Positions 30,700 to 63,662 of a DNA stretch of 64,000 bases are shown here, in pieces. The DNA is from Clostridia bacterium. GTDB lineage: Bacteria; Bacillota; Clostridia; Oscillospirales; CAG-272. Where the stretch lies: positions 383 to 64,382 of the forward strand of contig CAAFLY010000247.1 of NCBI GenBank assembly GCA_900763885.1, written 5' to 3'. Numbering within the stretch: position 1 is the stretch's first letter; every line of letters begins with the position of its first letter. The notes under the pieces were generated by a model. The model did not search any database, was not told where the DNA came from, and saw nothing but the letters and a program-made list of their open reading frames with translations. The position numbers and the translations under genes are program-made.

Positions 30700-30720
30700 A
30701 ATTTTCTACTCCTTTTATTC

Positions 30721-40380: not shown

Positions 40381-40384
40381 CTAT

Positions 40385-44645: not shown

Positions 44646-44672
44646 AATTTTGTATCTCCGTGGATTTAGAAA

Positions 44673-44930: not shown

Positions 44931-45035
44931 TGAGGCTTAGGTCCATGTCCCGTTTCTCACACCATCACAACATAGTATACCACAAAAGGGGGCTTTATGG
45001 AATAGGATTCTGTGAATTTTTGGTTGACGGCAAGG

Positions 45036-45133: not shown

Positions 45134-45478
45134 TCAGTCTACCAGCTTGATGAGTGCCATTTCGGCTGCGTCACCGCGACGGGGCCCGAGCTTGTAGATC
45201 TGGGTGTAACCACCGTTGCGATCTGCGTACTTCGGAGCGACCTCGTCGAAGAGCTTCTTGACTACGTCTTCCTTGGTGATATAGGCGAGAGCAGCACGGC
45301 GGGAAGCTAAGGTATTCTTCTTGCCGAGCGTGATCATTTTTTCAGCGATGGCACGGACTTCCTTGGCGCGGGTCAGCGTGGTTTCGATGGAACCGTTTTC
45401 AATCAGGTAGGTTACCATGCCACGAAGCATAGCGTTTCTGTGAGCCGTGGGTCTGCCGAGTTTTCTGGTACCGGGCAT
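45134..45478 (-). CDS. rplQ: 50S ribosomal protein L17
   Basis: [21 protein letters not shown].. is the canonical L17 N-terminus. Confidence 0.95.
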
Positions 45479-45610
45479 ATTCCATGTCCTCCTTATGCAT
45501 TATGGGTTGTTCCCGTTCTCTCCGGCAGTCTGGGACCGCGCGGATACCTCCGACAATGAGGGCGGGAGTGAAAATCATATATATGGGGTAGGATCCGCGA
45601 AGGGCAGTCC

Positions 45611-46582
45611 TTATTCCTCTTCCTTTTTGAGGTCGAGTCCGAGGGAATGCAGCTTCTGGATCACTTCTTCAAGCGACTTCTTACCGAGGTTACGCACCTT
45701 CATCATGTCGTCCTCGGTTCGGTTGATCAGATCTTCAACGGTATCAATGCCGGCGCGCTTCAGACAATTGAAGCTGCGGACGGACATGTCAAGCTCCTCA
45801 ATGGTCATCTCAAGGACCTTTTCTTTGACGGTTTCTTTACTTTCCACCATGATCTCTGCATTCTTTGCTTCGTCTGAAAGATCGACGAACAAGTTGAGAT
45901 GCTCGTTGAGTATCTTGGCGCCGAGAGAAATCGCTTCTTTCGCGAGGATCACGCCGTTGGTCAGCACCTCGAGTGTGAGTCTGTCATAATCGGTGTTGCT
46001 GCCCACGCGGGTATTCTCGACGGTATAATTCACGTTATAGACCGGCGTATAGATCGAGTCGGTAAAAATGGTACCGATCGGAGCAGAGACGCCCTGGCTC
46101 TGCGCCAGATAGAGCTGCTTGTTCTTTTCCTGCGACACATAGCCTCTGCCGTGATCGAACGTAAGCTCCATGAAGAAGCGCACGTTGTCGCCGACGGTAG
46201 CGATGTGATGTTCCGGGTTGAGGATTTCGATGTCCGCGTCCTGCTTGATGTCGCCGGCAGTCACATCCGCGCCGCCCGTCACGTCGATCAGCACCGTTTT
46301 CGGGCCGTCGGTGTGGAGCTTGGCGGTAATGCCTTTGACGTTGAGGACGATTTCGGTCACGTCTTCCTTCACGCCGGGAATCGTGGAGATCTCGTGCAGC
46401 ACACTGTCGATCTTAATGCTGGTAACGGCAACTCCGGGCAGGGAGCTCAGGAGGACACGGCGCAGGGAATTTCCGAGCGTAATACCGTAGCCTCTCTCCA
46501 GGGGTTCGATTATAAACTTTCCGTTTCTGCCATCTTCACTCAGATTGATCGTCGCAATATTCGGCTTTTCAATCTCAATCAT
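45611..46582 (-). CDS. rpoA: DNA-directed RNA polymerase subunit alpha
   Basis: 323 aa; [26 protein letters not shown]; C-terminal domain [17 protein letters not shown]. Confidence 0.95.
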
Positions 46583-46861
46583 GTACTAATAACCCTCCGT
46601 TTCCAATGTTTGCAAATCCACACATTTGCTGTTGCGCTATCTCTCGCAAGGGGAAAGTCTCCAAAGCCGAACCGGACAGATGTCGGTCAGGCAACCGTCG
46701 GATGTGGCAAGGTGGGGAACCGAAAGGGGATCCTTTGCGATTCCGCCGCCATCCATACCGTGTCCATGAAACGGAGTGCCTCATGGATGATCCCATACTT
46801 CCCGGGCCACGCTGGGAGAAAACCGGGAAACGCTCTCGTGAAAGCGCGCTCTGGGGGATTA

Positions 46862-47488
46862 TTATTTGGAGTACAACTCGACGATGAGCTGTTCTTCGAA
46901 CGGGAAGTCGATGTCGTCACGCTTCGGCAGGGCAATCACCTTGGCGGTAGCGTTGGCGTGGTCGATTTCGAGCCACTTCGGGATCACAGCGGTCTCAGAG
47001 GTTTCGACGAGCATCTTGAACTTTTCGGAAGCCTTGCTCTTTTCACGGAGTGCGATCACGTCGCCGACCTTGCAGATGATGGACGGAATGTCTACCTTCT
47101 TGCCGTTTAAGGTGAAGTGTGCGTGGCGAACCATCTGGCGCGCTTCCTTACGGCTGGATGCGAGGCCCATTCTGTACACGACGTTGTCGAGACGGCACTC
47201 GAGGATGGTGAGCATATTTTCACCGGTAACGCCAGCCTTCTTGTCGGCCTTTACATAGTATTCGTGGAACTGCTTTTCCTGAACACCGTAGTAACGGCGT
47301 GCGGTCATCTTTTCTCTATGCTGGAGACCATATTCCTTGATGGTCTTGCGGCCTGCGCCGTGCTGACCCGGAACCGTGGCACGACGAGCGACGGCACACT
47401 TATCGGAGAGGCAGCGGTCGCCCTTGAGGAAAAGCTTTTTGCCTTCTCTGCGGCAGAGCTTGCAGGAAGGACCAGTATATCTTGCCAT
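46862..47488 (-). CDS. rpsD: 30S ribosomal protein S4
   Basis: [16 protein letters not shown].. Confidence 0.95.
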
Positions 47489-47507
47489 TTGTTATTTTCC
47501 TCCTAAA

Positions 47508-47906
47508 TTATACTCTTCTGCGCTTCGGCGGACGGCAACCGTTGTGCGGGATCGGGGTAACGTCCTTGATGAGGGTGATGTCAAGACCGGTGGTCTGGAG
47601 TGCGCGGATGGCAGCTTCACGACCGTTGCCGGGACCCTTTACGTATACTTCCACCGTCTTCATACCATGTTCCATAGCTCCCTTTGCGGCAGCTTCGGCA
47701 GCGGTCTGTGCAGCGAACGGCGTGTTCTTCTTGGAGCCCTTGAAGCCCATGCCGCCGGAGGATGCCCACGATACGGTATTGCCCATAACGTCGGTGATCG
47801 TCACGATGGTATTGTTGAAGGTAGAGCGGATGTGTGCGTGACCTTTTTCAATATTCTTCCGGTCGCGACGCTTCTTGATGACTTTCTTAGCAGCTACTTT
47901 AGCCAT
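47508..47906 (-). CDS. rpsK: 30S ribosomal protein S11
   Basis: [18 protein letters not shown].. Confidence 0.95.
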
Positions 47907-47926
47907 TTCGTGCTCTCACTCCTTTA

Positions 47927-48295
47927 TTACTTCTTCTTGTTGGCAATCGTCTTAGCCGGACCTTTTCTGGTTCTGGCGTTGGTCTTCGTTCTCTGACCAC
48001 GCACGGGGAGGCCCTTTCTGTGACGGATGCCGCGATAGCAGTTGATCTCCACGAGCCGCTTGATGTTCATAGCGACCTCACGACGGAGTTCACCCTCTAC
48101 GGTATATTCATTTTCGATGACGTCACGCAGCTTTGCGATGTCGTCCTCGGTCAGATCCTTCGCACGGATGTCGGGATTGATGCCGGTTTTCTTGAGAATG
48201 TCGTTCGCGCTTTTTCTGCCGATACCATAAATGTAGGTAAGAGCGATTTCCACACGCTTCGAATTCGGGATATCAACACCGGATATACGAGCCAT
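47927..48295 (-). CDS. rpsM: 30S ribosomal protein S13
   Basis: [26 protein letters not shown].. Confidence 0.95.
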
Positions 48296-48326
48296 TTGCT
48301 TCTTCCACCTTTCTCTGGTTCTTCAA

Positions 48327-48440
48327 TTAACCCTGTCTCTGCTTGTGCTTCGGGTTTTCACAGATCACCATCACACGGCCGTGACGCTTGATGATCTTGC
48401 ACTTTTCGCAGATCTTTTTTACGGAAGGCTTAACTTTCAC
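48327..48440 (-). CDS. rpmJ: 50S ribosomal protein L36
   Basis: Not in the ORF track (37 aa). GTG start; translated by hand as (M)[36 protein letters not shown]. Confidence 0.9.
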
Positions 48441-48818
48441 AGTATAATTCCACCTTTCTTCTTGTTTGCTCCGCGTCCGGGACAGAACACGGAACGGACC
48501 ACACGCAAAAACGGATCTCGCTTCTGCGGTTTTGGATCGGGCGCGGCAGACCGGATCGTCTGTCAGGCTCGTCCGGGTATGCCGGGATCGGACGCGACGG
48601 GAAATGCGAAACCGTCAGCGCCGGCGGGACAACCGGCTTCTCCGCCAAGCAACTCTTTGTCGATTCACGCGAATTTTGGATACGCCAAACCGCGCACAGC
48701 AATCCGCTGCAAAGACACTCTGGAAAATACGGATTTTGCTCCGCGCCAGGATAAGCACACAACGTCGGCGGCACAGAGTTTACGCAAGCCTCTGTCCACG
48801 GCGACCGTCATGCCGCAA

Positions 48819-49040
48819 TCAGCCTTTTGTTCTCCAGGTGATTCTGCCCTTGGTCGGGTCATAAATGGAGACTTCCACCGTGACCTTATCGCCCGGGAGA
48901 ATGCGGATATAGTTCATTCTGAGTTTACCGGAAATGTGCGCCGTCACGATCATATCGTTCGGGAGCTTTACCTTGAACGTGGTGTTCGGCAGAGCTTCCA
49001 CAACGGTGCCTTCAAACTCAATTACATCATCCTTCGGCAA
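48819..49040 (-). CDS. infA: Translation initiation factor IF-1
   Basis: 73 aa; TTG start behind GGAGG; ..[36 protein letters not shown]. Confidence 0.95.
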
Positions 49041-49459
49041 ATGCGTTTCCTCCTTGCGTTTTTTCCATAGGATTCTTCATCGCTCCGGTACATACTTTGC
49101 GGCGATAGATCGACTGCGGGGATCGCGACGCCCGAAGCAGGCACCCAGCCTCCGCTCCGATCCGCATTTCCGCAAGGGAGCCCTTTTTCTTCTGCAATTT
49201 TGGTGCGCAAAATCGCGCGGGCAGTCCATGGGGATCCCGGGTCAGGGAATCTCCGTCTGCCATAGGTCGCACAGGGCAAGTCCTGCGCCTGCCGACACCA
49301 ACCCCGCCGGATCCATAATACAGCCGCGGATCTGGTGGCATTGGAGCGGTAAATTGCCGGTGAAAAACAGCACCGCATGCCCGGATTGCTCCGAAAATGC
49401 AGATACGCGGTCCGATTTTTGGGCAAAAATCCCCCTATCGCACAGCATATCACTTATAC

Positions 49460-49488
49460 ATTATACTGAAAATGACCGCTCCTGTCAA
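49460..49488 (-). promoter_or_regulatory. Perfect-consensus sigma-A promoter (TTGACA-17-TATAAT) inside the ribosomal protein cluster
   Basis: Minus strand: TTGACA (49488-49483, overlapping the KOW gene stop), 17-nt spacer, TATAAT (49465-49460); about 415-nt leader to infA. Confidence 0.6.
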
Positions 49489-49793
49489 GCGGGATTTTCG
49501 CCTTTTGCGGATTTTTTCGCATTTTCTACGTAATGCTCATATTTCGCAAGGATTTCGGCGACTGTTTTGTCTGTATATGCCATAGCGAGCGCGGCTCTCT
49601 CGTCCTCGGACAGCGGTGCGATCCACACAAGATGGGCGATATTCTTCACCTTCGGCCTGTCCACCGGATGGAGCGCGCCGTTCACGATCGTGACTGCCGG
49701 ATACGGCGCGTCCGCCGCGCCCGTGGTGAGGTAAAGCCGCCTCCGATCCCTGCCGCATCTGGACCGCACGACGTACAGCTCCGTCGGATTCAT
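49485..49793 (-). CDS. KOW-domain RNA-binding protein (map-infA intergenic gene typical of Clostridia)
   Basis: Last 102 codons of track ORF 49485..50351. ATG 49793 overlaps the map stop (ATGA). MNPTELYVVRSRCGRDRRRLYLTTG..VTIVNGALHPVDRPKVKNIAHL. Confidence 0.75.
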   Translation of the reverse strand: MNPTELYVVRSRCGRDRRRLYLTTGAADAPYPAVTIVNGALHPVDRPKVKNIAHLVWIAPLSEDERAALAMAYTDKTVAEILAKYEHYVENAKKSAKGENPA

Positions 49794-50551
49794 ATATCCG
49801 CCACCTTGGTGAGCAGAAGCACGCCGTCCGGCGTCAGAGCGCAGCTGTGCTCGTAATGCGCGGACAGGCTGCCGTCTCTCGTGACCACCGTCCAGTGATC
49901 GGGACGCTCGACGACCTCGGGTCCGCCCAGGTTCACCATCGGCTCGATCGCGATCGTCATCCCGCGGCACAGTCTCGGTCCGCGTCCCGCGGTGCCAAAG
50001 TTCGGTACGTTCGGATCCTCGTGCAGCTCGTGGCCCACGCCGTGTCCGACGTACTTCTTCACCGTCGTCATGCCGTTTTCCACTACATAACTGTCGATGG
50101 CGTGCCCGATGTCCCCAATCCTGCCGTGCTCGATGTCGATCGCCGCTACGCCGCGGTAGAAGCTCTCCTTCGTCACGTCGATCAGGTGCTGTGCCTCCGC
50201 GGAAATCCTGCCCACCGGGAACGTGTTCGCGCTGTCCCCATGAAAGCCGCCGATGAACGCGCCTACGTCGATCTTCACAATGTCCCCCTCGTGCAGCACC
50301 CTGTCCGCCGACGGGATCCCATGGATCACCTCGCTGTTGATCGATATGCACGCGCTCCCCGGAAATCCACCGTACCCCAAAAACGACGGCTTCGCTCCGT
50401 TCTTCTCAATATGGTGCCGGATCTTCTCGTCGATCTGCTTCGTGGTGACCCCTTCCTTGATCATCTCCGCCGCCACCAGTATCGCTTCCCCGGTGATCCG
50501 CCCGGCTATCTTCATCTTCTCAATCTGCTCTTTTGTCTTTATTACTATCAT
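49790..50551 (-). CDS. map: Type I methionine aminopeptidase
   Basis: 253 aa; metal ligands in DIVKIDVGA, GDSANTF, VGHGVGHELHE, IEPM. Confidence 0.95.
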   Translation of the reverse strand: MIVIKTKEQIEKMKIAGRITGEAILVAAEMIKEGVTTKQIDEKIRHHIEKNGAKPSFLGYGGFPGSACISINSEVIHGIPSADRVLHEGDIVKIDVGAFIGGFHGDSANTFPVGRISAEAQHLIDVTKESFYRGVAAIDIEHGRIGDIGHAIDSYVVENGMTTVKKYVGHGVGHELHEDPNVPNFGTAGRGPRLCRGMTIAIEPMVNLGGPEVVERPDHWTVVTRDGSLSAHYEHSCALTPDGVLLLTKVADI

Positions 50552-50580
50552 TTTATGTAATCCTTTAATTTCTGGTGACT

Positions 50581-51100
50581 GGGGGACGCGGGGAGACGGG
50601 GAACGGGGAACGGTCGCTTTTGAAAAAGCTCCGCAAAACTTTTATATGGGGGTGGTGATGGATTTAGTTTGTGCAAGTCGGTTTGCTCACCAATTTGGTG
50701 CCGTCCTAGGCATCAGGAGATCGTTCGCGAGCGGCTCCCGATGGGATCCGCCTTCTACGGGGAGAGATTGCGGGATATAGTTTATTGGGGTAATGGTAGA
50801 ATACCGCGTTGGGGATGGGATTGCGTGTAATTTTCATTGGAGATTAGACCGCACACCTATCCACCCCCGTCGTGTCTCCCCGCATCCCCGCATCTCCACC
50901 CTGATGGACGCACCTACATCAAATAGACGGCGGATCCGTCCCCGGAGCCGCCCCAGAACGATCTCCTGCGGACTTGGACGGAGCAATATTGGTGCGCACA
51001 CGGACTTGCACAAACTATATCCATCACCAATCCCCTTATAAAAGTTTTGCGGAGCTTTTTCAAAAGCGACCGTTCCCCCCGTTCCCCGTCTCCCGTTCCC
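50581..51100. repeat. Full-length paired copy of the element between map and adk
   Basis: Left arm GGGGGacgcGGGGagacGGGGaacGGGG, CGGTCGCTTTTGAAAAAGCTCCGCAAAACTTTTATA..TTAGTTTGTGCAAGTCGGTTTGCTCACCAATTTGGTGC.. Right arm ..CGGACTTGCACAAACTATATCC..TTATAAAAGTTTTGCGGAGCTTTTTCAAAAGCGACCG plus C-tracts ending 7 nt before the adk stop. Confidence 0.85.
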
Positions 51101-51107
51101 TACAAAG

Positions 51108-51746
51108 TTACTCTTCCAATGCAGCAGCCATCAAAGCGGTGGTGTCTTCGAGTTTTTCCTGACCGTAGACGAGCTTGAGGAGGCCGCGGGACTTGTAGAA
51201 ATCCTTGAGCGGCTCGGTCTGATCGTGATAGACCAGGAGGCGTTCCTTGACGACCTCGGGCGCGTCATCGGAGCGAATCGTGAGCGGCTCGCCGCAGTGG
51301 CAATTTTCGCCGGCAGGGGACGGATTGTACTTCACGTGGTACGTCATGCCGCACTTTTTGCAGACGCGTCTGCCGCCCATGCGCTCCATGATGGAATCAT
51401 CCGTCACCTCAATGGATATCACGTCCGTGATCTCGACGCCCATCTTTTCGAGTGCTTCCGCCTGCGGAACCGTGCGCGGGAATCCGTCCAGGATAAAGCC
51501 GTTCGCGCAGTCGTCCTTTGCCATGCGTTCCTTGATGATGTGGATCACCACGTCGTCCGGCACCAGATCGCCCTTTTCCGTGTAGCTCTTGACCTTCTTG
51601 CCAAGCTCGCTGCCCGAAGCGATCGCCTCGCGGATCATCGCACCTGTGGAGATCGCCGGAATCCCGTACCGCTCCGAAATGATCTCCGCCTGCGTTCCCT
51701 TGCCGGCTCCCGGCGCGCCCAGGAGAATCAGATTCAATTTTCTCAT
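51108..51746 (-). CDS. adk: Adenylate kinase
   Basis: P-loop GAPGAGKGTQ; Cys-rich lid CKKCG..CHCG. The start could instead be the TTG three codons in. Confidence 0.9.
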   Translation of the reverse strand: MRKLNLILLGAPGAGKGTQAEIISERYGIPAISTGAMIREAIASGSELGKKVKSYTEKGDLVPDDVVIHIIKERMAKDDCANGFILDGFPRTVPQAEALEKMGVEITDVISIEVTDDSIMERMGGRRVCKKCGMTYHVKYNPSPAGENCHCGEPLTIRSDDAPEVVKERLLVYHDQTEPLKDFYKSRGLLKLVYGQEKLEDTTALMAAALEE

Positions 51747-51756
51747 TTTGTATTTC

Positions 51757-52079
51757 GCGGAGGAGCTTTTCTGAAATAGCCTTCCCCCGCACCCCTTTCA
51801 AAAAACTTTATACTGTATTCTGGTTTTCGTACCCGCAAATCGTCCGTTACGGTATATAAAGTGAGTGCGGAAACATACCGTAACCACTATATCTCTCATT
51901 CTCTCCAAAATAACCCGGGAATAAACAAGCGCACAAAGCTAACCCCTAGAAATCAACCCGGCAATCCGGCAATCCAGCAGTCCAAAATCCTGCCCCTTTT
52001 TTATAAAGTTCTTGCCCAGAATGCGCAGCTTTCTGACTTCTTGTCAAGAAGCGTCCTGTTCCCCCGTTCCCCCGTATCC
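51757..52079. repeat. Paired copy of the element with a variant left arm, between adk and secY
   Basis: Left arm GCGGAGGAGC..GCCTTCCCCCGC-ACCCCTTTCAAAAAACTTTATAC. Right arm TTTATAAAGTTCTTGCC-CAGAATGCGCAGCTTTCTG-ACTTCTTGTCAAGAAG-CGTCCTGTTCCCCCGTTCCCCCGTATCC. Confidence 0.65.
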
Positions 52080-52151
52080 AAGGCAATAACGCCAATAAGC
52101 GGCGTGCTTTCCGTTGGATTGGAGAGAACGCCGCTTGTCGGATGCGGATGA

Positions 52152-53483
52152 TTATTCCAAGAAGCCCTTGTAGTGACGCATGGTCATCTGCGCTTCGATC
52201 TCGCGGATCGTTTCGAGGACGACGCCCACCACGATGATGAGGGACGAGCCGCCGAACGCCAGACTAGCCATTGCACCGCCGGCGATGATGTTCGCAAGGA
52301 GCGGCACCACGGAGACAATACCTAAGAAGATCGCGCCGATGAAGGTCACACGGGACAGGATCTTGCTGATATAGTCCGAGGTCGGTCTGCCCGGACGGAT
52401 ACCCGGGATGAAGCCGCCGTTCGCCTTCATGTTGTTCGCCACTTCGATCGGGTTGAAGGAAATGGAGATGTAGAAGTAGGAGAACGCGACGATGAGAACG
52501 AGCGTCAGGATCGCGTACACGATGCTGTCCGCCTGGAACAGTCCGAGGAATCCGGCCCAGAAGGAGCCTTCCTTCGGCGTCGGGCAGAACATGGCAATCG
52601 TCGCCGGGATCGTGATGATGGAGTTCGCGAAGATGATCGGCATAACGCCCGTCATGTTCACCTTGATCGGAAGATTCGACGACTGGCCGCCGTACATCTT
52701 TCTGCCAACTACCTTCTTCGCGTACTGTACAGGGATTCTGCGTTCACTGTTCGTACCGAATACGATGAACGCCACCATGGCGATCGCAACCACAACCGCA
52801 AGGATTGCGATGATCGTGCCGAGCCACCACGGAATCGTGCCCACCGTGTCGTCGCGCTTCATGTACTGCGCCTTGCCCGTGACAAAACGCCACAGGGAAA
52901 GAGCCGTAGACGGAAGGCGGGAGATAATGTTCACGAAAAGGATCATGGAAATGCCGTTGCCAATGCCGTTTTCGTTGATCTTCTCAGAGAGCCACATGAC
53001 CAGCGCGGAGCCGGCACAATAGCTCGTGATGATAACGATCGCCGCGAAAACGCCCTTGTCAATGATCGCGCCGTTCGTCTTCAGAATCTGATAATAGCCG
53101 AACGCCGTCAGAAGACCCAGCGCAACCGTAACGTAACGGGTGATCTGGTTGATCTTCTTTCTGCCCTCTTCGCCTTCCTTGGAAAGGTTTTCGAGGTAGG
53201 GGATCGCGATGCAAAGAAGCTGCATTACGATGGATGCCGTAATGTACGGGTTGATACCCAGTGCAAACAGTGTCGCCTGCGAGAATGCGTTACCGGTGAT
53301 GATGTTCAGATACTGGAAGATCGAACCGTTCGTCGCCGACATATACAGGCTGAGCTGGTTGGAATCCAGGTACGGAACCGGAATCGCTGTGCCAACCCGG
53401 TACAATACGAGAATGAACAGGGTAAAGAGCAGTTTCTTCTTCAGATCCGCAATTTTCCACGCATTCTTGATGGTCTCGAACAC
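52152..53483 (-). CDS. secY: Preprotein translocase subunit SecY
   Basis: 443 aa, 10 TM segments; canonical SecY N-terminus and position after rplO. Confidence 0.95.
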   Translation of the reverse strand: MFETIKNAWKIADLKKKLLFTLFILVLYRVGTAIPVPYLDSNQLSLYMSATNGSIFQYLNIITGNAFSQATLFALGINPYITASIVMQLLCIAIPYLENLSKEGEEGRKKINQITRYVTVALGLLTAFGYYQILKTNGAIIDKGVFAAIVIITSYCAGSALVMWLSEKINENGIGNGISMILFVNIISRLPSTALSLWRFVTGKAQYMKRDDTVGTIPWWLGTIIAILAVVVAIAMVAFIVFGTNSERRIPVQYAKKVVGRKMYGGQSSNLPIKVNMTGVMPIIFANSIITIPATIAMFCPTPKEGSFWAGFLGLFQADSIVYAILTLVLIVAFSYFYISISFNPIEVANNMKANGGFIPGIRPGRPTSDYISKILSRVTFIGAIFLGIVSVVPLLANIIAGGAMASLAFGGSSLIIVVGVVLETIREIEAQMTMRHYKGFLE

Positions 53484-53924: not shown

Positions 53925-53966
53925 AAGTTATATCCTCCTATCAATATATCGTGTCTTTCGGAGGGC

Positions 53967-54146: not shown

Positions 54147-54161
54147 TGCTCATAACCTCCC

Positions 54162-54668: not shown

Positions 54669-54943
54669 TTCGTTTCTCCAAAATTATTTTTGAAATGATG
54701 TTCTGATAACTTCCTTCTCGACGCCATCGCGTTACCCTATCACATAGGAAGCAGGCTCGGAATCTGCCCGCGATGCCGCCCCAAAAACCGGGACAAAAGC
54801 TGCCAACACAGCCCAAAAAACGAAAGTCAAAGCCCAACCACCACCCTACGATAGCGGTATTCTCCCCTATACAGCGTGCCGCACAAAGGATAAAAGCCAA
54901 ACCAAAGAAACGAGCGCCATAAGCCAACCAAACATTCATTCTG

Positions 54944-55010
54944 TTCCCCAGTATAAAAGTTTTGCCAGGCTTTTCCAAAAGCCGCGTTCCCCCGTCCCCG
55001 TTCCCCCCCC
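54944..55010 (-). repeat. Solo arm of the element between rplR and rpsE
   Basis: CCCCAGTATAAAAGTTTTGCCA, palindrome GGCTTTT-CC-AAAAGCC (54968-54983), GCGTTCCCCCGTCCCCGTTCCCCCCCC. Confidence 0.8.
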
Positions 55011-55036
55011 GAGGAAGTTATGTGTACAACCCGGAA

Positions 55037-55396: not shown

Positions 55397-55414
55397 TTAT
55401 AACGTCTCCTTTCC

Positions 55415-55954
55415 TTATTTACCGGTCTTACCGGCTTTACGACGGATACGCTCGTCGCTGTACTTGATACCCTTGCCGTGGTACGGTTCCGGGGGTCTCT
55501 TCGCGCGGATGTTCGCTGCGACCTGACCGCAGTACTGCTTGTCGAAGCTCTTCACGATGATCGTGTTGGAGTCCGGCACGTCGAACGTTACCTTGTCGTC
55601 TTCGTTGAAGTAGATCGGGTGCGAGTGACCGACGTTCAGGACGATGCGCTTGCCTTCCTTCGCTACTCTGTAGCCGACGCCAACGATCTCCAGCTTCTTC
55701 TCGTAGCCCTTCGATACGCCCTCGACCATGTTGTGGATCAGGGTTCTCGTCAGACCGTGGAGCGCGCGGTTCTCGTTCTCGTCGTCGGGACGCGTTACGT
55801 GAATGACGGAGCCGTCCACGGTAACGGTCATGGCCGCGGGTGCCTTGTACGTCAGCTCGCCCTTTGCGCCCTTAACGGTAATCAGGTTGTTTTCGCCCAC
55901 GGTTACGGTCACGCCAGCGGGTACCGTAATGGGAGCTCTACCAATTCTAGACAT
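55415..55954 (-). CDS. rplF: 50S ribosomal protein L6
   Basis: MSRIGRAPITVPAGVTVTV.. Confidence 0.95.
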   Translation of the reverse strand: MSRIGRAPITVPAGVTVTVGENNLITVKGAKGELTYKAPAAMTVTVDGSVIHVTRPDDENENRALHGLTRTLIHNMVEGVSKGYEKKLEIVGVGYRVAKEGKRIVLNVGHSHPIYFNEDDKVTFDVPDSNTIIVKSFDKQYCGQVAANIRAKRPPEPYHGKGIKYSDERIRRKAGKTGK

Positions 55955-55973
55955 CTCTTAACCTCCCTTTCTC

Positions 55974-56372
55974 TTACCAGACAAAAGCGAGGATCTCGCC
56001 GCCTACGTTTTCCCGTCTTGCCTTCTTGTCGGTCATGATGCCCTTGGAGGTCGATACGATCGCGATGCCAAGTCCGTTCATAACCTTCGGCATGTCTTCG
56101 CAGTTGGAGTAGATCCGCAGACCCGGCTTCGATACGCGGCGCAGTCCGTGAATGACCTTCTGCTTGCCTGCCTCGTACTTCAGCGTGATGCGGATGATGC
56201 CCTGCTTGCCGTCTTCAATTACCTGCACGCCCTTGATGTACCCCTCGTTCAGCAGAATGTCGGCGATTGCCTTCTTCATGTTGGACGCGGGTACGTCTAC
56301 GGTCTCGTGCTTTGCGTTATTCGCATTTCTGATTCTGGTCAGCATATCGGCGATAACGTCAGAAATCTGCAT
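55974..56372 (-). CDS. rpsH: 30S ribosomal protein S8
   Basis: ..[24 protein letters not shown]. Confidence 0.95.
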
Positions 56373-56502
56373 AATGTTTTCCTCCTGTCATGCAAGTCGT
56401 TTTTTCTTGCTGCCCGGCAGTTCTTTCGAGGATTTTTACCTTCCTCTCTCAGCTTTGCCAAGCCGCTTGCCAGGGGTTAAAGTGAGTAGTCCTGGTCGCT
56501 CG

Positions 56503-56575
56503 GGTGGAGAGACGGTCGCTTTTGAAAAAGCTCCGCAAAACTTTTATACATGGACTTCGTGGGCACAAGACCCAC
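56503..56575 (+). repeat. Arm of the element inside the rpsN-rpsH spacer
   Basis: GGGTGGAGAGACGGTCGCTTTTGAAAAAGCTCCGCAAAACTTTTATACATGGACTTCGTGGGCACAAGACCC. Confidence 0.75.
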
Positions 56576-56988
56576 GCAGCCATGTATGACAGATTTCATG
56601 GAATTTCTCTCACAACAGTGAATCGTCCATCTATCCGGGTGATCAGAACCGACGCTTTCCTACTGGCGCGGAACGTATATTTCCCGACGCGGGATTTCTC
56701 CCGTACCGGGGTATGGATCGGGGACAGTTTTTGCGCCATCCCCGTACCAATCTGAAAATAAGTGCGCTTTCGCAATATCCGGGACATACATGTGTCCGCC
56801 GCAAGCCAGCCAAACAGCAGTCTACAGAGCCAGTCTGAACGAACAAATCCTCAACCCAACTCCATAATCCGCCAACCGTCAGCCCCAAACCCAACAAAAT
56901 GTCAAATCCAGTCTGCGGCAGCTATTTGCGGTAGCCTTCATGCCTGTCGGGGCTTCCCGACCTTCATGCCCGCGGGGGCGTCCCCGCC

Positions 56989-57174
56989 TTACCAGGATGC
57001 TTTGCGAACGCCGGGGATCTCGCCCTTGTAGGCCAGCTCACGGAAGCAGATACGGCAGATACCGTACTTGCGGAGGTAAGCATGGGGACGACCGCAGATC
57101 TTGCAGCGGTTGTACTTCCGGGTGGAGTACTTCTGCTCTTTCTGCTGCTTCAGGATCATCGATGTTTTAGCCAT
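56989..57174 (-). CDS. rpsN: 30S ribosomal protein S14, zinc-binding type Z
   Basis: 61 aa; [23 protein letters not shown]. Confidence 0.95.
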
Positions 57175-57191
57175 TTCTTCTGCCTCCTCGA

Positions 57192-57734
57192 TTATTTCGC
57201 AAAGGGTGCGCCCATAAGGGTCAGCATTTCCTTAGCTTCTGCGTCGGTCTGCGCGGTGGTAACGAAGCAAATGTCCATACCACGGATCTTTTCGACCTTG
57301 TCATACTCGATTTCGGGGAAGATGAGCTGTTCCTTCAGACCGAGGGCGTAGTTGCCTCTGCCGTCGAACGCGTCCGGGTTGATGCCCTTGAAGTCGCGCA
57401 CTCTCGGAAGAGCGAAGTTGAACAGACGATCCATGAACTCGTACATCTTTTCGCCGCGGAGGGTGACCTTCACGCCGATCTTCATGCCCTCACGGAGCTT
57501 GAAGTTCGCGACGGACTTCTTCGCGTAGGTCGGAACGGGCTTCTGACCGGTGATCAGCGCCAGGTCCGCCATGATCGCGTCGATGACCTTCGTGTTTTCC
57601 TTCGCGTCGCCCGCGCCAACGTTGATGACGATCTTGTCGATCTTCGGGATCTGCATCACGCTCTTGTACTGGAACTTCTTCATCAGAGCCGGAGCTACCT
57701 CAGAAGTGTATAATTCTTTCATTCTTGCAGCCAT
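57192..57734 (-). CDS. rplE: 50S ribosomal protein L5
   Basis: ..[37 protein letters not shown]. Confidence 0.95.
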
Positions 57735-57748
57735 CGTACACCTCCGAA

Positions 57749-58066
57749 TTACAGCTCAGCGCCGCACTTGGCGCATACGCGGGTTTTCTTGTCGCCGTCG
57801 ATCTTGTGGGCGGCTCTGGTAGCCTTCTTGCACTTGCTGCAGTACAGCTGTACCTTGGAGGCGTAGATCGCGCCTTCAACCTCGACGATTCCGCCGGCTT
57901 CCTGGGGCGGTCTCGGCTTGACGTGCTTCTTTACGAGATGCACGCCGGATACGATTACTTTGCCTTCCTTCGGCGATACCTCAACGACCTTGCCGGTCTT
58001 GCCCTTATCGTCGCCGGAAATGACGATGACCTCGTCACCCTTCTTTATATGAAGCTTCTTAATCAT
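57749..58066 (-). CDS. rplX: 50S ribosomal protein L24
   Basis: Start trimmed to ATG 58066 (GGAGG, 8-nt spacing): [25 protein letters not shown]. Confidence 0.9.
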
Positions 58067-58080
58067 CTTTTCTACCTCCA

Positions 58081-58449
58081 TTAAAGAACTTCGGGTGCCA
58101 GGGACAGGATCTTGGTGTAGTCGTGCTCACGAAGCTCACGTGCTACAGGCCCAAAAATACGGGTGCCCTTGGGGTTCTTATCGTCGTTGATGATCACGGC
58201 CGCGTTTTCGTCAAACTTGATGTAGGATCCGTCGCCGCGGCGCAGACCCTTTCTGCTTCTGACGATCACTGCCTTGACTACGTCGCCTTTCTTGACAACG
58301 CCGCCCGGAGACGCCTTCTTTACAGCGCATACGACTACGTCGCCAATGTTTGCGTAACGTCTGCCGGTGCCGCCCAGTACCCGGATGCACATAAGCTCCT
58401 TCGCACCGGTGTTGTCGGCAACCTTCATTAAGGATTGCTGTTGAATCAT
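58081..58449 (-). CDS. rplN: 50S ribosomal protein L14
   Basis: [27 protein letters not shown]. Confidence 0.95.
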
Positions 58450-58594
58450 GTCTTGTATCTCCTTGTGTGTTTTTGTGAGGAGTACACCGTCAGAGAGTTC
58501 GCACGACCATAGGGCGTCAAAGCAGGTTTCCCCGCCGTCTGACCCCTGCTCCGTGCGCTTATCTTACGGCTTTTTTCTTTGGGATTTATTGTTC

Positions 58595-58811
58595 GCGGGG
58601 GAAACTTTTTTCGAGAAAAAAGTCTCCCCCGCACCCCCTTCCAAAAAGCTTTACATATTTTTGGTTAGGGATACGGTTTTGCCTACAGGACGTACATACG
58701 GCTTAACTCGTCAGAGCCGCACCGCATGTTTGTCTCGTGAAAAGGTATAAAGTTTTTTGGAGGTGTCGGAACCTTTTCGCAAAAAGGTTCTGACATCGTT
58801 CCCCCGTATCC
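58595..58811. repeat. Paired copy of the element with a variant left arm, between rpsQ and rplN
   Basis: Left arm is a 17-bp hairpin GCGGGGGAAACTTTTTT-cgag-AAAAAAGTCTCCCCCGC (58595-58632) plus ACCCCCTTCCAAAAAGCTTTACATA. Right arm GTATAAAGTTTTTTGGAGGTGTCGGAACCTTTTCGCAAAAAGGTTCTGACATCGTTCCCCCGTATCC ends on the nt before the rpsQ stop. Confidence 0.7.
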
Positions 58812-59072
58812 TTACTTAGCCTTTTCGATGATGCGGACCAGTCTCCAGCGGATGGTTTTGGAGAGCGGGCGGGTTTCCATGACCTCGACGGTGTCGCCGA
58901 TACCCGCGGAGTTCTCCTCGTCACGCACGTGGATCTTGTTGGTACGCTTGATAATTTTGCCATAAGTGGGATGCTTTACATGGTTTTCGATGGCAATCAC
59001 GATGGTTTTGTCCATCTTATCGCTGACTACCTTACCCACTCTGGTTTTTCTGAGAGCGCGTTCTTCTGCCAT
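58812..59072 (-). CDS. rpsQ: 30S ribosomal protein S17
   Basis: ..[22 protein letters not shown]. Confidence 0.95.
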
Positions 59073-59082
59073 AATGTCCCCC

Positions 59083-59271
59083 TTATGCCTTCTTCTCGGC
59101 GATGACGGTCATCACGCGAGCGATTTCCTTTTTGGTTTCCTTGATCTTGTGGGGATTATCGAGCTGATTGATTGCGAGCTGAAAACGGAGATTAAAAAGC
59201 TCTGTTTTCAGGTCATTCAGCATGGATGCGAGCTCTTCTGCAGACTTATTTCTGAGTTCTGTTGCCTTCAC
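59083..59271 (-). CDS. rpmC: 50S ribosomal protein L29
   Basis: [31 protein letters not shown]. Confidence 0.95.
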
Positions 59272-59274
59272 AGC

Positions 59275-59706
59275 TTAACCCTCCACTTCTTTTTCCAGTT
59301 GTTCGCGGGTAGCGAAGCGGCACTTGATCGGGAGCTTATGCATAGCAAGACGCATAGCTTCACGAGCGAGCTCCTCGGAGATGCCACCCATTTCAAACAT
59401 AACTCTGCCCGGCTTTACGACTGCGACCCAGTATTCGGGCGTACCTTTACCGGAACCCATACGCGTTTCGGCAGGCTTTTCAGTGATGGGCTTGTCGGGG
59501 AAGATTTTGATCCAGACCTGACCGCCTCTCTTGACGTAACGGGTCATAGCGATACGGGCTGCTTCGATCTGGTTTGCGGTGATCCATGCGGGTTCGGTAG
59601 CTACGAGGCCGAATTCGCCGTTTGTGATCTTATTGCCGCGGAGTGCCTTACCGGTGAGGCGGCCTCTCTGTACGCGTCTGTACTTAACTCTCTTAGGCGA
59701 TAACAT
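59275..59706 (-). CDS. rplP: 50S ribosomal protein L16
   Basis: [21 protein letters not shown]. Confidence 0.95.
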
Positions 59707-60566
59707 TAGTGGGCGCCTCCTTCCTCAGTCTTTCTCGGTGCTCTGGGCGGTCTGGATTCCTGTCCAGCGGGGCGGCTGCCTCTCGGGCCCTGACCGTCGC
59801 GGCGCTGGAATCCGCCGTCTCTGCGATCACCGCGGCGATCACCGTCTCTGCGGTCGCGTCTCTGACCGTCTCTGCGGTCACCGCGGCGCTGGTTGTTGCG
59901 GCGATCCTCGGTAACGGCACCGGTGCGAGCGACCTCGGAGAGGATTTCGCCCTTGTAGATCCACACCTTTACGCCGATCTTACCGTAGGTGGTGTTGGCT
60001 TCCCAGAAGCCGTAATCGATGTCTGCGCGGATGGTCTGCAGCGGGATGGTGCCCTCGTGGTAATGCTCGGTACGTGCGATTTCAGCACCCGCGAGACGAC
60101 CGGAGAGGCAGACCTTGATACCCTTCGCGCCCATACGCATGGTACGCTGGATAGCGCCCTTCATGGCTCTGCGGAAGGAGATACGGCGCTCGAGCTGGTT
60201 TGCGATGGATTCGGCAACGAGCTGCGCGTCCATCTCGACCGGCTTGACCTCTACTACGTTTACGATAACCGGAGCGCCGACGATCTTTTCGATGTCCGCC
60301 TTCAGGTTGTCGATTTCGCTGCCGCCGCGTCCGATAACCATACCGGGCTTCGCGCAGTGGATAAAGACGCGCACCTTACCGGTGTTGTCTCTTTCGATCT
60401 CGATCTTCGGAATGCCCGCGAGGAAGAGCTTCTTCTTGAGGAATTCTCTGACCTTATAATCCTGGACCAGGGTATCGCCGAACTTTTCGTCGGAGGCAAA
60501 CCATCTGGAGTCCCAGTTCTTGATTACGCCGACACGAAGGCCGTGCGGATTCACTTTCTGTCCCAT
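59706..60566 (-). CDS. rpsC: 30S ribosomal protein S3 with an approximately 70-aa Arg/Asp/Gly-rich C-terminal extension
   Basis: [24 protein letters not shown]..; 286 aa; tail [47 protein letters not shown].. Confidence 0.95.
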
Positions 60567-60581
60567 ATTTCGACTGCCTCC

Positions 60582-60917
60582 TTACTCTTTTTCTTTCACA
60601 GCCACGGTGATATGGCTGGTTCTCTTGAGGATCCGGTCAGCGGACCCCTTGCCTCTGGGCATAATGCGCTTCATGGTCATGCCGGGGCAGACGAAGCACT
60701 CGGACACATAGAGGTTGTCCTTGTTCATGTGGAAGTTGTTTTCCGCGTCAGCAGCCACCTTTTCCAGCAGCTTGAGGACGTAGGGACTTGCGGATTTCGG
60801 GGTATTCTTTAAGATACCGCAGGCTACATCGTAGTTCTTCCCACGGATGAGGTCGAGAACGATCTTGACCTTGCGAGGGGAGATGCGGATATGCTTTTGG
60901 GTAGATTTGGATTCCAT
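60582..60917 (-). CDS. rplV: 50S ribosomal protein L22
   Basis: ..IRISPRKVKIVLDLIRGKN. Confidence 0.95.
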   Translation of the reverse strand: MESKSTQKHIRISPRKVKIVLDLIRGKNYDVACGILKNTPKSASPYVLKLLEKVAADAENNFHMNKDNLYVSECFVCPGMTMKRIMPRGKGSADRILKRTSHITVAVKEKE

Positions 60918-60940
60918 TTCCTTATTGCTCCTCCCTCTTC

Positions 60941-61222
60941 TTATTTACCGTTGTTGGAAGTCTTGGAACCGGCGTGACCCTTAAAGGTTCTGGTAGGGGC
61001 GAACTCACCGAACTTGTGGCCGACCATATCCTCGGTGATGTACACCGGGATGTGCTTCTTGCCATCGTGGACGGCAACCGTATGACCAACGAATTCCGGG
61101 AAAATGGTAGAGGCTCTGGACCAGGTCTTGAGGACCTTCTTTTCGCCTTTTTCGTTCATCTGGCAAACTCTCTGGTAGAGCTTTTCCTCGATAAACGGTG
61201 CTTTTTTCAAACTTCTGCTCAT
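60941..61222 (-). CDS. rpsS: 30S ribosomal protein S19
   Basis: [44 protein letters not shown]. Confidence 0.95.
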
Positions 61223-61240
61223 TCTAAGCTGCCTCCTTCC

Positions 61241-62071
61241 TTACTTGCTGTTTCTGCGCTTTACGATCATCTTGTCGGTGCGGGCCTTCTTGTTTCTGGT
61301 CTTGTAACCGAGAGCCGGCTTGCCCCACGGGGTAACAGGACCCGGACGACCGATCGGGGAACGGCCTTCACCACCACCATGCGGGTGATCGCACGGGTTC
61401 ATGACGGAGCCGCGGACGGTCGGGCGGATACCCATGTGACGCTTCTTACCGGCCTTACCGACCTTGACGGTGTCGTGCTCGATGTTGCCGACCTGACCGA
61501 TGGTCGCGAGGCAGTTGTCCATGACGTAGCGCATTTCACCGGAGGGGAGACGAAGCATGACCTTGCCGTCCTCCTTACCCATGACCTGTGCCTGTGCGCC
61601 GGCGGAACGGACCATCTGGCCGCCCTTGCCGGGATACAGCTCGATATTGTGTACGAAGGTACCGTCGGGGATGTTCGCGAGCGGCAGGGTGTTGCCGGGG
61701 ATGATGTCGGCGTCCTTACCGGAGTAAAGCACCTGACCGTCGGTCACGCCCACGGGAGCCACGATGTAGCTCTTCTTGCCGTCCTCATCCTTCAGCAGCG
61801 CGATATACGCGGTACGGTTCGGGTCGTATTCGATACCCACAACGGTCTGCGGCTTCTCGGACTGACGCTTGAAGTCGATGATGCGGTATTTCTGACGGTT
61901 TCCGCCGCCTCTGTGACGGACGGTGATTCTGCCGTAGCTGTTGCGGCCGGCGTTCTTCTTCTTGGAAGCGAGCAGGCTCTTTTCGGGAGTGAACTTGGTG
62001 ATCTCGTCGAAGGACGGGACAGACATATGTCTTCTTGCCGGAGTTGTCGGCTTATATTTGATAGTAGGCAT
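61241..62071 (-). CDS. rplB: 50S ribosomal protein L2
   Basis: ..[28 protein letters not shown].. Confidence 0.95.
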
Positions 62072-62089
62072 TTGTTATCGTCCTCCTTC

Positions 62090-62386
62090 TCAGTTCATGC
62101 CTTCGAAGAATTCGATGGTCGCGGAATCCTCAGCGAGGGTGACGATCGCCTTTTTCCAGCTGGCGGTCCTTCCGGGCACGAGACGAACTCTCTTCGGCTT
62201 AGACTTCATCGTAACGGTGTTCACGCTCTTTACCTTGGTGCCCTTGAACATCGCTTCAACAGCGGCGGCGATCTCCGGCTTGGTGGCGTCCTTTGCGACT
62301 TCAAAGGTGTACTTCCGATCCGAGATCATGTCCATGGAGCGCTCGGTGATGAGAGGTCTGATAATAACATCCTGAACGAATTTCAT
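62090..62386 (-). CDS. rplW: 50S ribosomal protein L23
   Basis: ..IIRPLITERSMDM.. Confidence 0.95.
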   Translation of the reverse strand: MKFVQDVIIRPLITERSMDMISDRKYTFEVAKDATKPEIAAAVEAMFKGTKVKSVNTVTMKSKPKRVRLVPGRTASWKKAIVTLAEDSATIEFFEGMN

Positions 62387-63009
62387 TATGCGTATACCTC
62401 CTCGATTTTCTGTACGGCTTCCTTAGCGATCACGAGGGAATTGCAGTTGAGGATGTCGTAAACGCAGAGGGTATTGGTCAGAACGACCTTGACGCCGGGG
62501 ATATTGGCAAGGCTGCCCATCACCATCGGATCCACGGCGGGAAGCACCACGAGGGTCTTCTTGCCCGCGCCGATTGCGGAGAGCATCTTGACCATGGTCT
62601 TGGTCTTGTATTCGCTGGCGGTGATGGCGTCGACAACGATCATCTCGTTTTCGGCTACCTTGGAAGAAAGCGCGCTGGTCATAGCGAGACGGCGGACCTT
62701 CTTGTTGACCTTGGTCTTGTACAGACGCGGCTTCGGACCGAGTGCGACACCACCGTGCGTCCACTGCGGCGCTCTGGTGGAGCCCTGTCTTGCGCGGCCG
62801 GTACCCTTCTGCTTCCACGGCTTTCTGCCGCCGCCGGAAACCTCGGTACGGGTCAGCGTGGACTGCGTGCCCTGTCTCTGGTTGCCGAGATATGCCTTTA
62901 CTGCTGCGTGAAGGACGGAAGCATGGATCTCACAGGCAAATACACTGTCGGCGAGGTTGATGGAACCCACTTCCGCGCCGGACATGTTTACAACTTTTAA
63001 TTCAGCCAT
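62386..63009 (-). CDS. rplD: 50S ribosomal protein L4
   Basis: ..GGGRKPWKQKGTGRARQGSTRAPQWTHGG. Confidence 0.95.
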   Translation of the reverse strand: MAELKVVNMSGAEVGSINLADSVFACEIHASVLHAAVKAYLGNQRQGTQSTLTRTEVSGGGRKPWKQKGTGRARQGSTRAPQWTHGGVALGPKPRLYKTKVNKKVRRLAMTSALSSKVAENEMIVVDAITASEYKTKTMVKMLSAIGAGKKTLVVLPAVDPMVMGSLANIPGVKVVLTNTLCVYDILNCNSLVIAKEAVQKIEEVYA

Positions 63010-63029
63010 TTCTGTTTCCTCCTTCCGAC

Positions 63030-63662
63030 TTATGCTTTCACGCTGTCGCGGAGGAACACGATGCCGCCCTTCGCGCCGGGAACTGCGCCCTTGACCGCGA
63101 TGAGGTTCTTTTCGGTGTCGACCTTGACAACTTCGAGATTCAGAACCGTAACCTGCTCGTTACCGTACTGACCTGCCATGTGCTTGTTCTTGTAGATTCT
63201 GGACGGCGTGGAGTTTGCGCCCATGGAACCCGGCTGACGATGGATCGGACCGGTACCGTGCGTCATACGCAGGATGTGCGCGTTCCATCTCTTGACAACG
63301 CCCGTGTAGCCGCGGCCCTTGGTGATGCCGGTAACGTCTACCTTGTCGCCGGCCGCGAACGTATCCGCGGATACGGTGTCGCCGACGTTCATGCTCTCGG
63401 TGTCCTCCAGACGGAATTCCTTGAGGTGACGGCGCGGGGATACGCCTGCCTTCTTGAAGTGACCTGCCTTCGGCTTGTTGACGAGCTTTTCGCGGATCTC
63501 TTCAAAGGCGAGCTGTACGGCATTGTAGCCGTCGGTTTCCACGGTCTTCTTCTGGGTGATGGCGCAGGGACCGGCTTCGATTACGGTAACCGGGATCACC
63601 TGACCGTTTTCCGTGAAGATCTGGGTCATGCCCAGCTTCTTTCCGATGATTCCTTTTTTCAT
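63030..63662 (-). CDS. rplC: 50S ribosomal protein L3
   Basis: Start trimmed to ATG 63662 (RBS AGGAGG): [33 protein letters not shown]. Confidence 0.95.

Follow-up and report, generated by a model that had tools for sequence, protein, structure and literature searches.

The S10-spc-alpha array of ribosomal protein genes is a textbook compact and conserved gene cluster under strong selection. The window analyzed here, a stretch of 64,000 nucleotides (nt) from contig CAAFLY010000247.1, carries this cluster on the minus strand (45134-63662), with the start of rplC at 63662 and the stop of rplQ at 45134. Its 31 open reading frames (ORFs), which include secY, adk, map, an ORF of 102 amino acids (ORF102), infA, rpmJ, and rpoA, were identified by translation and by Pfam families on conspecific contigs encoding identical proteins. 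The source species is an uncultured human-gut Eubacteriales/Oscillospirales bacterium known only from metagenomes, with cohorts that include the Hadza, and is represented by the metagenome-assembled genome (MAG) GCA_902475975.1. In this species, the cluster is expanded at nine junctions, and five of them hold copies of a palindromic repeat that is a real, non-coding, and apparently undescribed family.

Expansion of the cluster

A sequence-only reading of the window had reported eight long spacers, and recomputation gave identical lengths: 362 nt for rpsQ-rplN, 616 for rpsN-rpsH, 368 for rplR-rpsE, 405 for secY-adk, 556 for adk-map, 444 for ORF102-infA, 378 for infA-rpmJ, and 279 for rpsD-rpoA. 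The same holds for the stretch of at least 338 nt upstream of rplC, where the window ends; the whole rpsJ-rplC spacer is 420 nt in conspecific contigs. Most junctions are tight (14-42 nt), also as reported.

The spacers were compared across 90 loci, consisting of 80 species-representative loci found via SecY and 10 conspecific contigs found via ribosomal protein S5 (rpsE), with all 31 genes located by tblastn and every junction measured. In the 46 distant species (SecY identity below 66%), junction medians range from -14 to 115 nt. For example, the median is 115 nt at rpsJ-rplC, 54 at rpsQ-rplN, 107 at rpsN-rpsH, 15 at rplR-rpsE, 17 at secY-adk, 3 at adk-map, 30 at infA-rpmJ, and 97 at rpsD-rpoA. 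The span from rplD to rplQ is 17,876 nt in the window compared to a median of about 14,600 nt in the distant relatives. At 66-80% SecY identity the span is about 15.8 kb, relatives at 84% reach 17.0 kb, and members of the species have 17.3-17.9 kb. The expansion is lineage specific and stepwise, and the excess summed over the nine junctions is about 3.4 kb. Within the species, the secY-adk spacer varies from 385 to 481 nt. The comparison with related genomes, which the sequence-only reading had proposed as a check, shows long spacers as an expansion of this lineage, the relatives being shorter.

One could suspect that metagenome assembly across repeats produced the expansion or its variants, as many of the repeat heads described below lie at contig ends and three contigs (L003, L009, and L153) join differing DNA at the adk-map element. 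However, the same long spacers and architecture are seen in at least 10 independent assemblies from differing studies and assemblers, long spacers are also present in two further species representatives, and the flanking genes are collinear with clean spacer alignments. An assembly artefact is extremely unlikely.

A palindromic repeat in five spacers

The repeat unit starts with a G-rich heptamer cap. An AT-rich hairpin and the box CAAAACTTTTAT come next (the head), and many copies continue into a conserved body of about 180 nt. The cap is a variable array of two to six G-rich heptamers (GGGGAAC, GGGAGAC, and similar), and, judging from their letters, caps would usually hold enough G-runs for a G-quadruplex pattern. 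The head hairpin has a GC clamp and a T-run/A-run stem, and its variants (GCTTTTGAAAAAGC, GGCTTTTGGAAAAGCC, GAACCTTTTTTCAAAAAGGTTC, and GGCTTCTTGAAAGAAGCC) covary so that pairing is preserved. The box follows the consensus CAA(A/G)AACTTT(T)AT; in the form GCAAAACTTTTAT, with at most one mismatch, it is found 11 times in the window, compared to 0.03 expected by chance.

About 20 heads occur in the 64 kb, every one of them intergenic on the gene maps of conspecific contigs. The units are arranged in three ways: solo (54944-55010, 56506-56561, and 44657-44950), as inverted doublets (58595-58811, 51757-52079, 50578-51100, and 10263-10966), or head-to-tail, the last in metagenome contigs. The inverted doublets are 150-670 nt long and fold as a single long hairpin. 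All five repeat positions given for the cluster by the sequence-only reading were recovered by self-BLAST. The segment 50574-50810 matches 10717-10959 (87%, E 1e-77), 58747-58811 matches 28164-28229 (89%, E 1e-18), 58625-58653 matches 51783-51810, and both 56506-56561 and 54945-55007 match several copies each.

Going through the cluster in the direction of transcription, the first insertion is an inverted doublet with variant heads directly after the rpsQ stop codon (58595-58811, found by self-BLAST, no strand assigned). It contains the hairpin GAACCTTTTTGCGAAAAGGTTC and the box CAAAAAACTTTAT, and the whole rpsQ-rplN spacer folds with a z of -7.9 against shuffles. The rpsN-rpsH spacer holds a block of 172 nt (56483-56654, plus strand), in which the solo head at 56506-56561 is antisense to the operon. 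The 5' part of that spacer (56675-56988, minus strand) is lineage specific and G/T-rich with no detectable repeat, and begins with the GC hairpin GGCGGGGACGCCCCCGC (56972-56988). A solo cap and head with a hypervariable cap lies about 25 nt past the rplR stop codon in sense orientation (54944-55010, minus strand). The secY-adk spacer has an inverted doublet with variant heads and a G/T-rich centre (51757-52079, self-BLAST, no strand assigned), and its fold is weakly better than shuffles (z -2.5). Finally, the adk-map spacer is filled by a full-length foldback of two caps, two heads, and two bodies (50578-51100, no strand assigned). Its predicted hairpin is nearly continuous over about 240 bp (-324.8 kcal/mol, z -19.9) and ends 26 nt ahead of the map start codon.

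Heads are found at 5 of 30 junctions inside the cluster compared to 10 of 34 outside it, which means that the cluster is no preferred target and is merely not spared. The sequence-only reading had proposed that the element tolerates, or targets, sites inside such operons; tolerance stands, as insertions are present inside the cluster, and targeting of the cluster falls with these counts. Copies beyond the cluster lie at 7531, 10263-10966, 16150-16270, 25884, 28164-28240, 33730-34007, 40158-40195, 41040-41163, and 42800-42875. The one at 10263-10966 is a foldback of about 700 nt that fills the gap of two convergent genes. Some heads outside the cluster end 12-30 nt off start codons, and a solo unit with cap, head, and body just downstream of rplQ (44657-44950, plus strand) ends 12 nt before the next start codon.

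The age of the insertions can be read from the relatives. Heads at rpsQ-rplN, rpsN-rpsH, rplR-rpsE, and secY-adk are common to the sister species L012 (SecY identity 96%), and L011 also carries the shared heads at those junctions its contig covers. Since four of the five insertions are common to the sister species, they are old and fixed. Independent gains of family members at these junctions are seen in other lineages. In L013 (84%), a head lies in rpsQ-rplN on the opposite side of a conserved leader block; L017 (77%) carries copies at both rplR-rpsE and secY-adk; and compact doublets of a different subfamily are present in L022 (66%) at rpsQ-rplN, rpsN-rpsH, rplR-rpsE, and adk-map. Scans and spacer listings gave no recognizable head at these junctions in L014, L016, L019, L021, and L024. 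The sequence-only reading would have been undone by repeat-free relatives with equally long spacers; in L014 and L016, where no heads are recognizable, the spacers are clearly shorter. The short or overlapping junctions of the cluster are never hit.

Within the species, the adk-map junction exists in three allele classes among contigs encoding an identical S5 protein. In L001 and L005 the spacer is only 74 nt and consists purely of a short GC-rich cap-GCGA-cap' hairpin, compared to 556-574 nt elsewhere. The window and L109 have the element in one orientation, and in L002, L007, and L011 the interior is reversed; in L002 it aligns to the interior of the window in reverse (91% over 476 nt), and the two flanks align in direct orientation. 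A cap-hairpin remnant of 115 nt is present in the sister species L012, and the more distant L014 has a plain 31-nt spacer with no caps. The cap-only forms look like central deletions of the long palindrome rather than never-occupied sites. Apart from these adk-map alleles, no free cap-only hairpins that could be pre-existing targets were found elsewhere. The cap-only, filled, and inverted alleles all persist in nature, so none of them can be strongly deleterious. At rplR-rpsE, the cap differs among nearly all conspecific contigs and the leader downstream is nearly invariant; some contigs have a 47-nt pair of small perfect palindromes in the loop of the head hairpin.

In only a subset of alleles or copies, the element hairpins are tipped by perfect palindromes of 20-26 nt, such as GAAGAATGCCTTGGCATTCTTC, GGAGAAATCTCTGATTTCTCC, AATGAATCCAAGGATTCATT, and GAATTTAGCTTGCTAAATTC. 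They are seen in L004, L006, and L011 at rplR-rpsE, in L002 and L007 at adk-map, in L117, L119, L126, and L146, and in the window at about 44834-44866, as if palindromes had been inserted or had grown in a second, nested layer. The contig joins at the adk-map element (L003 13561-13780, L009 4509-5396, and L153 1-2274) connect adk with truB or with an inverted rplQ, or put an unrelated gene next to map; they reflect either repeat-mediated rearrangement or assembly chimeras.

The family is not confined to this species, as a metagenome scan found the exact head in 57 human-gut contigs. Some of these come from organisms of 32-42% GC, where the cap is a single GGGGAG within a longer conserved end, TTCAAATTTTGATTTATCGGGGAG... 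Gut Firmicutes thus carry the repeat family widely, and its outer motif has expanded into heptamer arrays in a lineage-specific way. The same 29-34-nt head, without heptamer caps, also occurs in other human-gut organisms of 32-59% GC (contigs L096, L102, L108, L115, L122, L125, L131, L138, L140, L143, L147, and L152). Tandem arrays of three head-containing units are present in L108 and L147, and L152 has a compact doublet of 150 nt.

Leaders, operon borders, and the excess length

Several of the affected junctions carry conserved cis elements. The block in the rpsN-rpsH spacer interrupts a conserved, structured leader of rpsH (56373-56674, minus strand; helices P1, P2, P2a, P3, and P4) in the apex of P2a. 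This leader of about 110 nt lies upstream of rpsH in many Oscillospirales (L027-L086). An RNAalifold consensus of 18 species has 27 pairs, 11 with compensatory changes, and CUCC in P1 pairs with the Shine-Dalgarno GGAG, for a predicted sequestration of the ribosome-binding site. Such covarying helices and Shine-Dalgarno sequestration liken it to known ribosomal-protein leaders such as S10-Clostridia (RF03136) and S4-Clostridia (PMC7247131). Neither Rfam 15 nor the list of candidate ribosomal leaders published in 2020 (Eckert and Weinberg, PMC7247131) contains the rpsH leader, which may serve autoregulation by S8. Where the window has its 172-nt block, P2a is short in L013 and L014, and in L022 this apex holds a doublet of independent origin. 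The S10-Clostridia leader itself is found upstream of rpsJ in relatives (L038 302-374 and L030 150-247), a position that the window ends short of.

Other junctions show similar signs. A leader-like block upstream of rplN (AAGCGCACGGAGCAGGGGTCAG..., 58450-58594, minus strand) is common to L012 and L013. After the rplR stop codon lies CCGGGTTGTACAC (55022-55034, minus strand), the local copy of a CCGGTTTGTACAC motif conserved across the order, and upstream of rpsE a CAGATTCCGAGCCTG hairpin (54752-54766, minus strand) is conserved in the closer clade; the two may jointly form an rpsE leader. A hairpin directly past the secY stop codon (52097-52136, minus strand) has a terminator-like counterpart at the same position in L013-L017, pointing to a transcript end or attenuator that has been conserved between secY and adk. 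The end of ORF102 carries a promoter-like site, TTGACA-17-TATAAT, that is perfect (12/12 matches; 49460-49488, minus strand) and precedes a stretch of about 420 nt before infA.

Parts of the rpsN-rpsH, rplR-rpsE, and rpsQ-rplN spacers are thus conserved leader sequence, neither repeat nor junk. With conserved cis elements at several of the affected junctions, the cluster was already split into regulatory units, and the repeats sit at the seams. The sequence-only reading had taken the array to be largely co-transcribed. This needs qualification, since the affected junctions are largely natural operon borders or leaders and a consensus promoter is already present at 49460-49488, so that the array was probably never a single unbroken transcript.

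The remaining long spacers hold no repeat. These are the 3' part of the rpsJ-rplC spacer (63663-64000), the unique ORF102-infA (49041-49484, fold z -1.2) and infA-rpmJ (48441-48818, z -0.6) spacers, and the unique rpsD-rpoA spacer (46583-46861, z -1.3), all on the minus strand. Together with rpoA-rplQ, they match solely orthologous loci in sequence searches, and the three largest (z -0.6 to -1.3) fold no better than shuffles. The repeat-free spacers are 67-92% identical to L011 and L012, compared to 62-98% for third codon positions, and are unalignable with L013; they drift at about the third-codon-position rate. ORF102 (49485-49793, minus strand), which overlaps the map stop codon, had been labeled a KOW protein. 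No Pfam or NCBIfam match supports that label. It diverges fast, with 72% nucleotide identity to L011 compared to 89-98% in neighboring genes.

One could therefore ask whether the long spacers are mainly cis-regulatory RNAs (leaders and attenuators) that evolved in the clade, with the repeats as incidental passengers. The covariation-supported rpsH leader, the conserved motifs upstream of rpsE and rplN, the positionally conserved hairpin after secY, and the consensus promoter ahead of the untranslated stretch before infA all fit this explanation, as do L014 and L016, which have no heads and already have intermediate spacers. It is possible, though doubtful, because the conserved blocks cover just 100-200 nt or so per junction. 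Outside these blocks, the spacers cannot be aligned to L013 (identity 0.42-0.64) and show third-codon-like divergence from L011 and L012. The repeat-free spacers fold no better than shuffles, and no Rfam family matches. Known ribosomal-protein leaders would likewise explain the baseline of 100-200 nt at three junctions, not the expansion. The intermediate expansion of relatives without heads does show that the repeat is not the sole cause, and the remaining excess possibly derives from fully decayed insertions.

Identity, mobility, and transcript effects

Searches for a known relative of the repeat were negative. Rfam gave nothing relevant at gathering thresholds, at E<=1 over the cluster, or at E<=5 over the full element, and the element had no match in plasmid, phage, and IMG/VR collections. 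A literature search found no report of the family or of repeat invasion of an S10-spc-alpha cluster. A search for autonomous elements (heads 1.3-6 kb apart enclosing an ORF) returned ordinary genes between unrelated copies only; one such candidate, the head pair at 40158-41163, was rejected because it encloses a TM2-domain gene and not a transposase. In an all-against-all ORF comparison of the 57 metagenome loci there was again no transposase, and the multi-copy proteins were paralogues of about 500 amino acids at 25-30% identity and spurious ORFs across repeats. One paralogue (L152_194_1633) has a lipoprotein-like N-terminus, and the window has several SBP_bac_1 genes. Two tandem paralogous gene pairs in the window (29197-32458 and 34008-37027, 72-85% DNA identity) are SBP_bac_1-type solute-binding proteins according to conspecific contig annotation. 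The only tRNA or tmRNA gene found is a single tRNA-Ala, which is unrelated. The arm was also tried as a structured non-coding RNA and rejected, given a weak RNAalifold consensus (-12.8 kcal/mol, four covarying pairs) with only local hairpins.

The closest known kinds are the repetitive extragenic palindromes (REP, BIME, and REPIN elements) and miniature transposable elements with inverted repeats (MITEs) such as Correia, while BOX shares the modular, variable-copy design. The Correia elements (NEMIS) of Neisseria form hairpins that are cleaved by RNase III when co-transcribed, and some carry promoter-like hexamers. Like Correia and other MITEs, the family consists of small, non-autonomous inverted-repeat elements that are abundant in intergenic DNA and inside operons. 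It is non-coding and multi-copy, with doublets of 150-670 nt and no conserved ORF. Terminal inverted repeats are present in the doublets (50578-51100, 10263-10966, 58595-58811, and 51757-52079), and many copies are solo or head-to-tail. Correia elements are marked by 26-bp terminal inverted repeats of the Neisseria consensus, a TA duplication, and an integration host factor site. The family is unrelated to them in sequence, has no TA or other duplication, and ends in heptamer arrays of variable length, so that it resembles Correia in function only. To our knowledge, no parent insertion sequence has matching ends.

REP and REPIN sequences are short extragenic palindromes that occur solo, as doublets, or clustered, and REP-associated tyrosine transposases (RAYTs) mobilize the doublets (PMC3116915, PMC3733652). 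Clostridia are not listed among the phyla that bear them (PMC3733652). The family resembles them in being non-coding, high-copy, imperfect extragenic palindromes with covarying stem variants, present solo, in clusters, and in inverted doublets that form long hairpins. Its copies lie after stop codons and between operon genes, lack a target-site duplication, and include solos resembling decayed doublets. The REPIN pattern of a doublet as main unit with singlet remnants is seen in the compact doublets of L022, L017, and L152, and cap-only and solo forms sit at sites that are filled in other strains. However, each unit is larger and built of modules (cap array, hairpin, box, and 180-nt body), and a consistent GTAG/CGTC tag is lacking; GTAG stands ahead of the cap at adk-map and at few sites besides, and CGTC occurs only in GAGAC-type heptamers. 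The 64-kb window and the loci examined contain no RAYT gene (IS200/IS605-type Y1). REPINs are described as vertically inherited and lineage specific, in contrast to the identical head seen here in distantly related organisms.

The BOX elements of Streptococcus pneumoniae are modular interspersed repeats (PMC3049150). They share with the family a variable number of modules, intergenic location, stable predicted folds, and no known mobilizing enzyme. They differ in their unrelated sequence, in a variable module that is a 45-nt boxB rather than G-rich heptamers, and in having no long inverted arms. As for invertons, in which short inverted repeats flank a promoter next to an invertase gene, both orientations of the adk-map element occur among samples, the arms are 150-200 nt, no outward promoter was found, and no recombinase lies nearby.

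Considering the anatomy, copy number, population polymorphism, independent gains, and lack of cluster enrichment observed above, the best explanation is probably that undescribed palindromic repeats pepper the genome, that the spacers of the cluster lengthened, and that copies then landed, were kept, and decayed. The spacers would first have lengthened in this lineage without the repeat. Family members, spreading by transposition with an enzyme encoded elsewhere, would next have landed and been retained only at translationally uncoupled junctions, which are operon borders and leaders, including the apical loop of the rpsH leader. Decay would then proceed by slippage of the caps, by flipping of the interior between long inverted arms, and by deletion of the central palindrome, leaving cap-loop-cap hairpins and solo heads, with small palindromes nested at hairpin tips.

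Several observations weigh against this account. No transposase lies between or beside heads in the window and about 160 loci. Eight distinct doublets have no direct repeat outside the caps that would mark a target-site duplication, a weak test given that variable caps blur the true element ends. A truly empty, cap-free adk-map allele is found nowhere within the species. Without a transposase, a duplication, or an empty allele, mobility rests on polymorphism and phylogenetically scattered presence. Recognizable repeat DNA amounts to about 1.3-1.5 kb, or about 40% (38-43%) of the excess, so that the role in the expansion implied by the sequence-only reading holds for that share and fails for the remainder, which is repeat-free spacer. 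Assemblies break and may mis-join at the repeats, as in L003, L009, and L153, and some structural variants could thus be errors. Lastly, an identical 34-nt head across organisms of 32-59% GC could be a conserved host-factor site instead.

This last idea can be extended to all heads, which would then be host regulatory sites (promoters or binding sites of a regulon protein) and not mobile DNA. The commonest head reads TTGAAA-N17-TATxxx, the rplR-rpsE copy passes a promoter scan (TTGGAA-17-TATACT), and the identical 29-34-nt sequence recurs in unrelated low-GC gut Firmicutes. However, T at position 6 of the -10 hexamer is found in only a few copies, and variant heads have their hairpin displaced by about 10 nt, without the -35 spacing. 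Heads also point either way and are found where convergent genes end (10263-10966), within a leader hairpin, and in inverted doublets and tandem arrays, and their presence and orientation differ between strains, all of which make a host site very improbable. As a promoter, neither the head nor a downstream TATAGT motif could be upheld, because the hexamers are not conserved at critical positions.

The same data bear on the effects on transcripts. The sequence-only reading had offered new internal terminators, promoters, or processing sites. Intrinsic terminators in the cluster number 21, compared to 24.5 expected from shuffles, and since they are not over-represented and most heads lack the T at position 6, little weight can be put on new terminators or promoters. 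The adk-map element as an RNA processing site is the only transcript effect with computational support, namely the predicted hairpin of -325 kcal/mol, and Correia elements would be the best functional analogy for this copy. Doublets that are read through would form long double-stranded RNA to be cut by RNase III, which would uncouple adk from map.

A further question is whether the junctions are hit for their structured DNA or RNA, not merely harmless there, with the element actively targeting hairpin or palindrome apices (the leader P2a, terminator-proximal DNA, and its own hairpin tips). Two independent insertions in the P2a apex of the rpsH leader (the window lineage and L022), copies that closely follow the hairpin after secY in the window, L015, and L017, and the small palindromes at element hairpin tips are in line with this, and so is the lack of a target-site duplication, as with hairpin- or single-stranded DNA (ssDNA)-directed transposases. 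Such targeting is nevertheless unlikely: the independent events are few, no unoccupied cap hairpins occur elsewhere, no enzyme has been identified, and selection alone, if insertions survive only in loops that tolerate them and past terminators, would give this pattern as well.

The boldest reading joins these features. In it, heads and caps are a new kind of duplication-free mobile DNA, horizontally shared among gut Clostridia and moved by a hairpin- or ssDNA-directed transposase or recombinase, with a preference for hairpin apices, with G-quadruplex-prone, hypervariable terminal minisatellites and flipping interiors, and the cluster alleles are natural expression switches. Taken as a whole it is quite improbable. 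If true, presence, absence, and inversion alleles would re-partition the operon and tune the expression of adk, map, and ribosomal proteins between strains.

The family is abundant in human-gut metagenomes and breaks assemblies. The practical value lies mostly in annotating and assembling MAGs of gut Clostridia and in finding ribosomal-protein leaders. Two by-products are a repeat family that appears to be undescribed and a candidate for a new leader of rpsH. For studying REP- or MITE-like hairpin effects on polycistronic mRNAs, the three kinds of adk-map allele (cap-only, filled, and inverted) are ready material. For the biology of the cluster, the lineage shows how far the array can loosen: it has gained about 3.3 kb (about 22%) of non-coding DNA, its palindromic repeats are fixed at four junctions and still vary at a fifth, and one of them lies inside the apical loop of a conserved, autoregulatory-type leader. 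Independent colonization by the family provides a natural map of the insertion-tolerant junctions and of those, short or overlapping, that are never hit.

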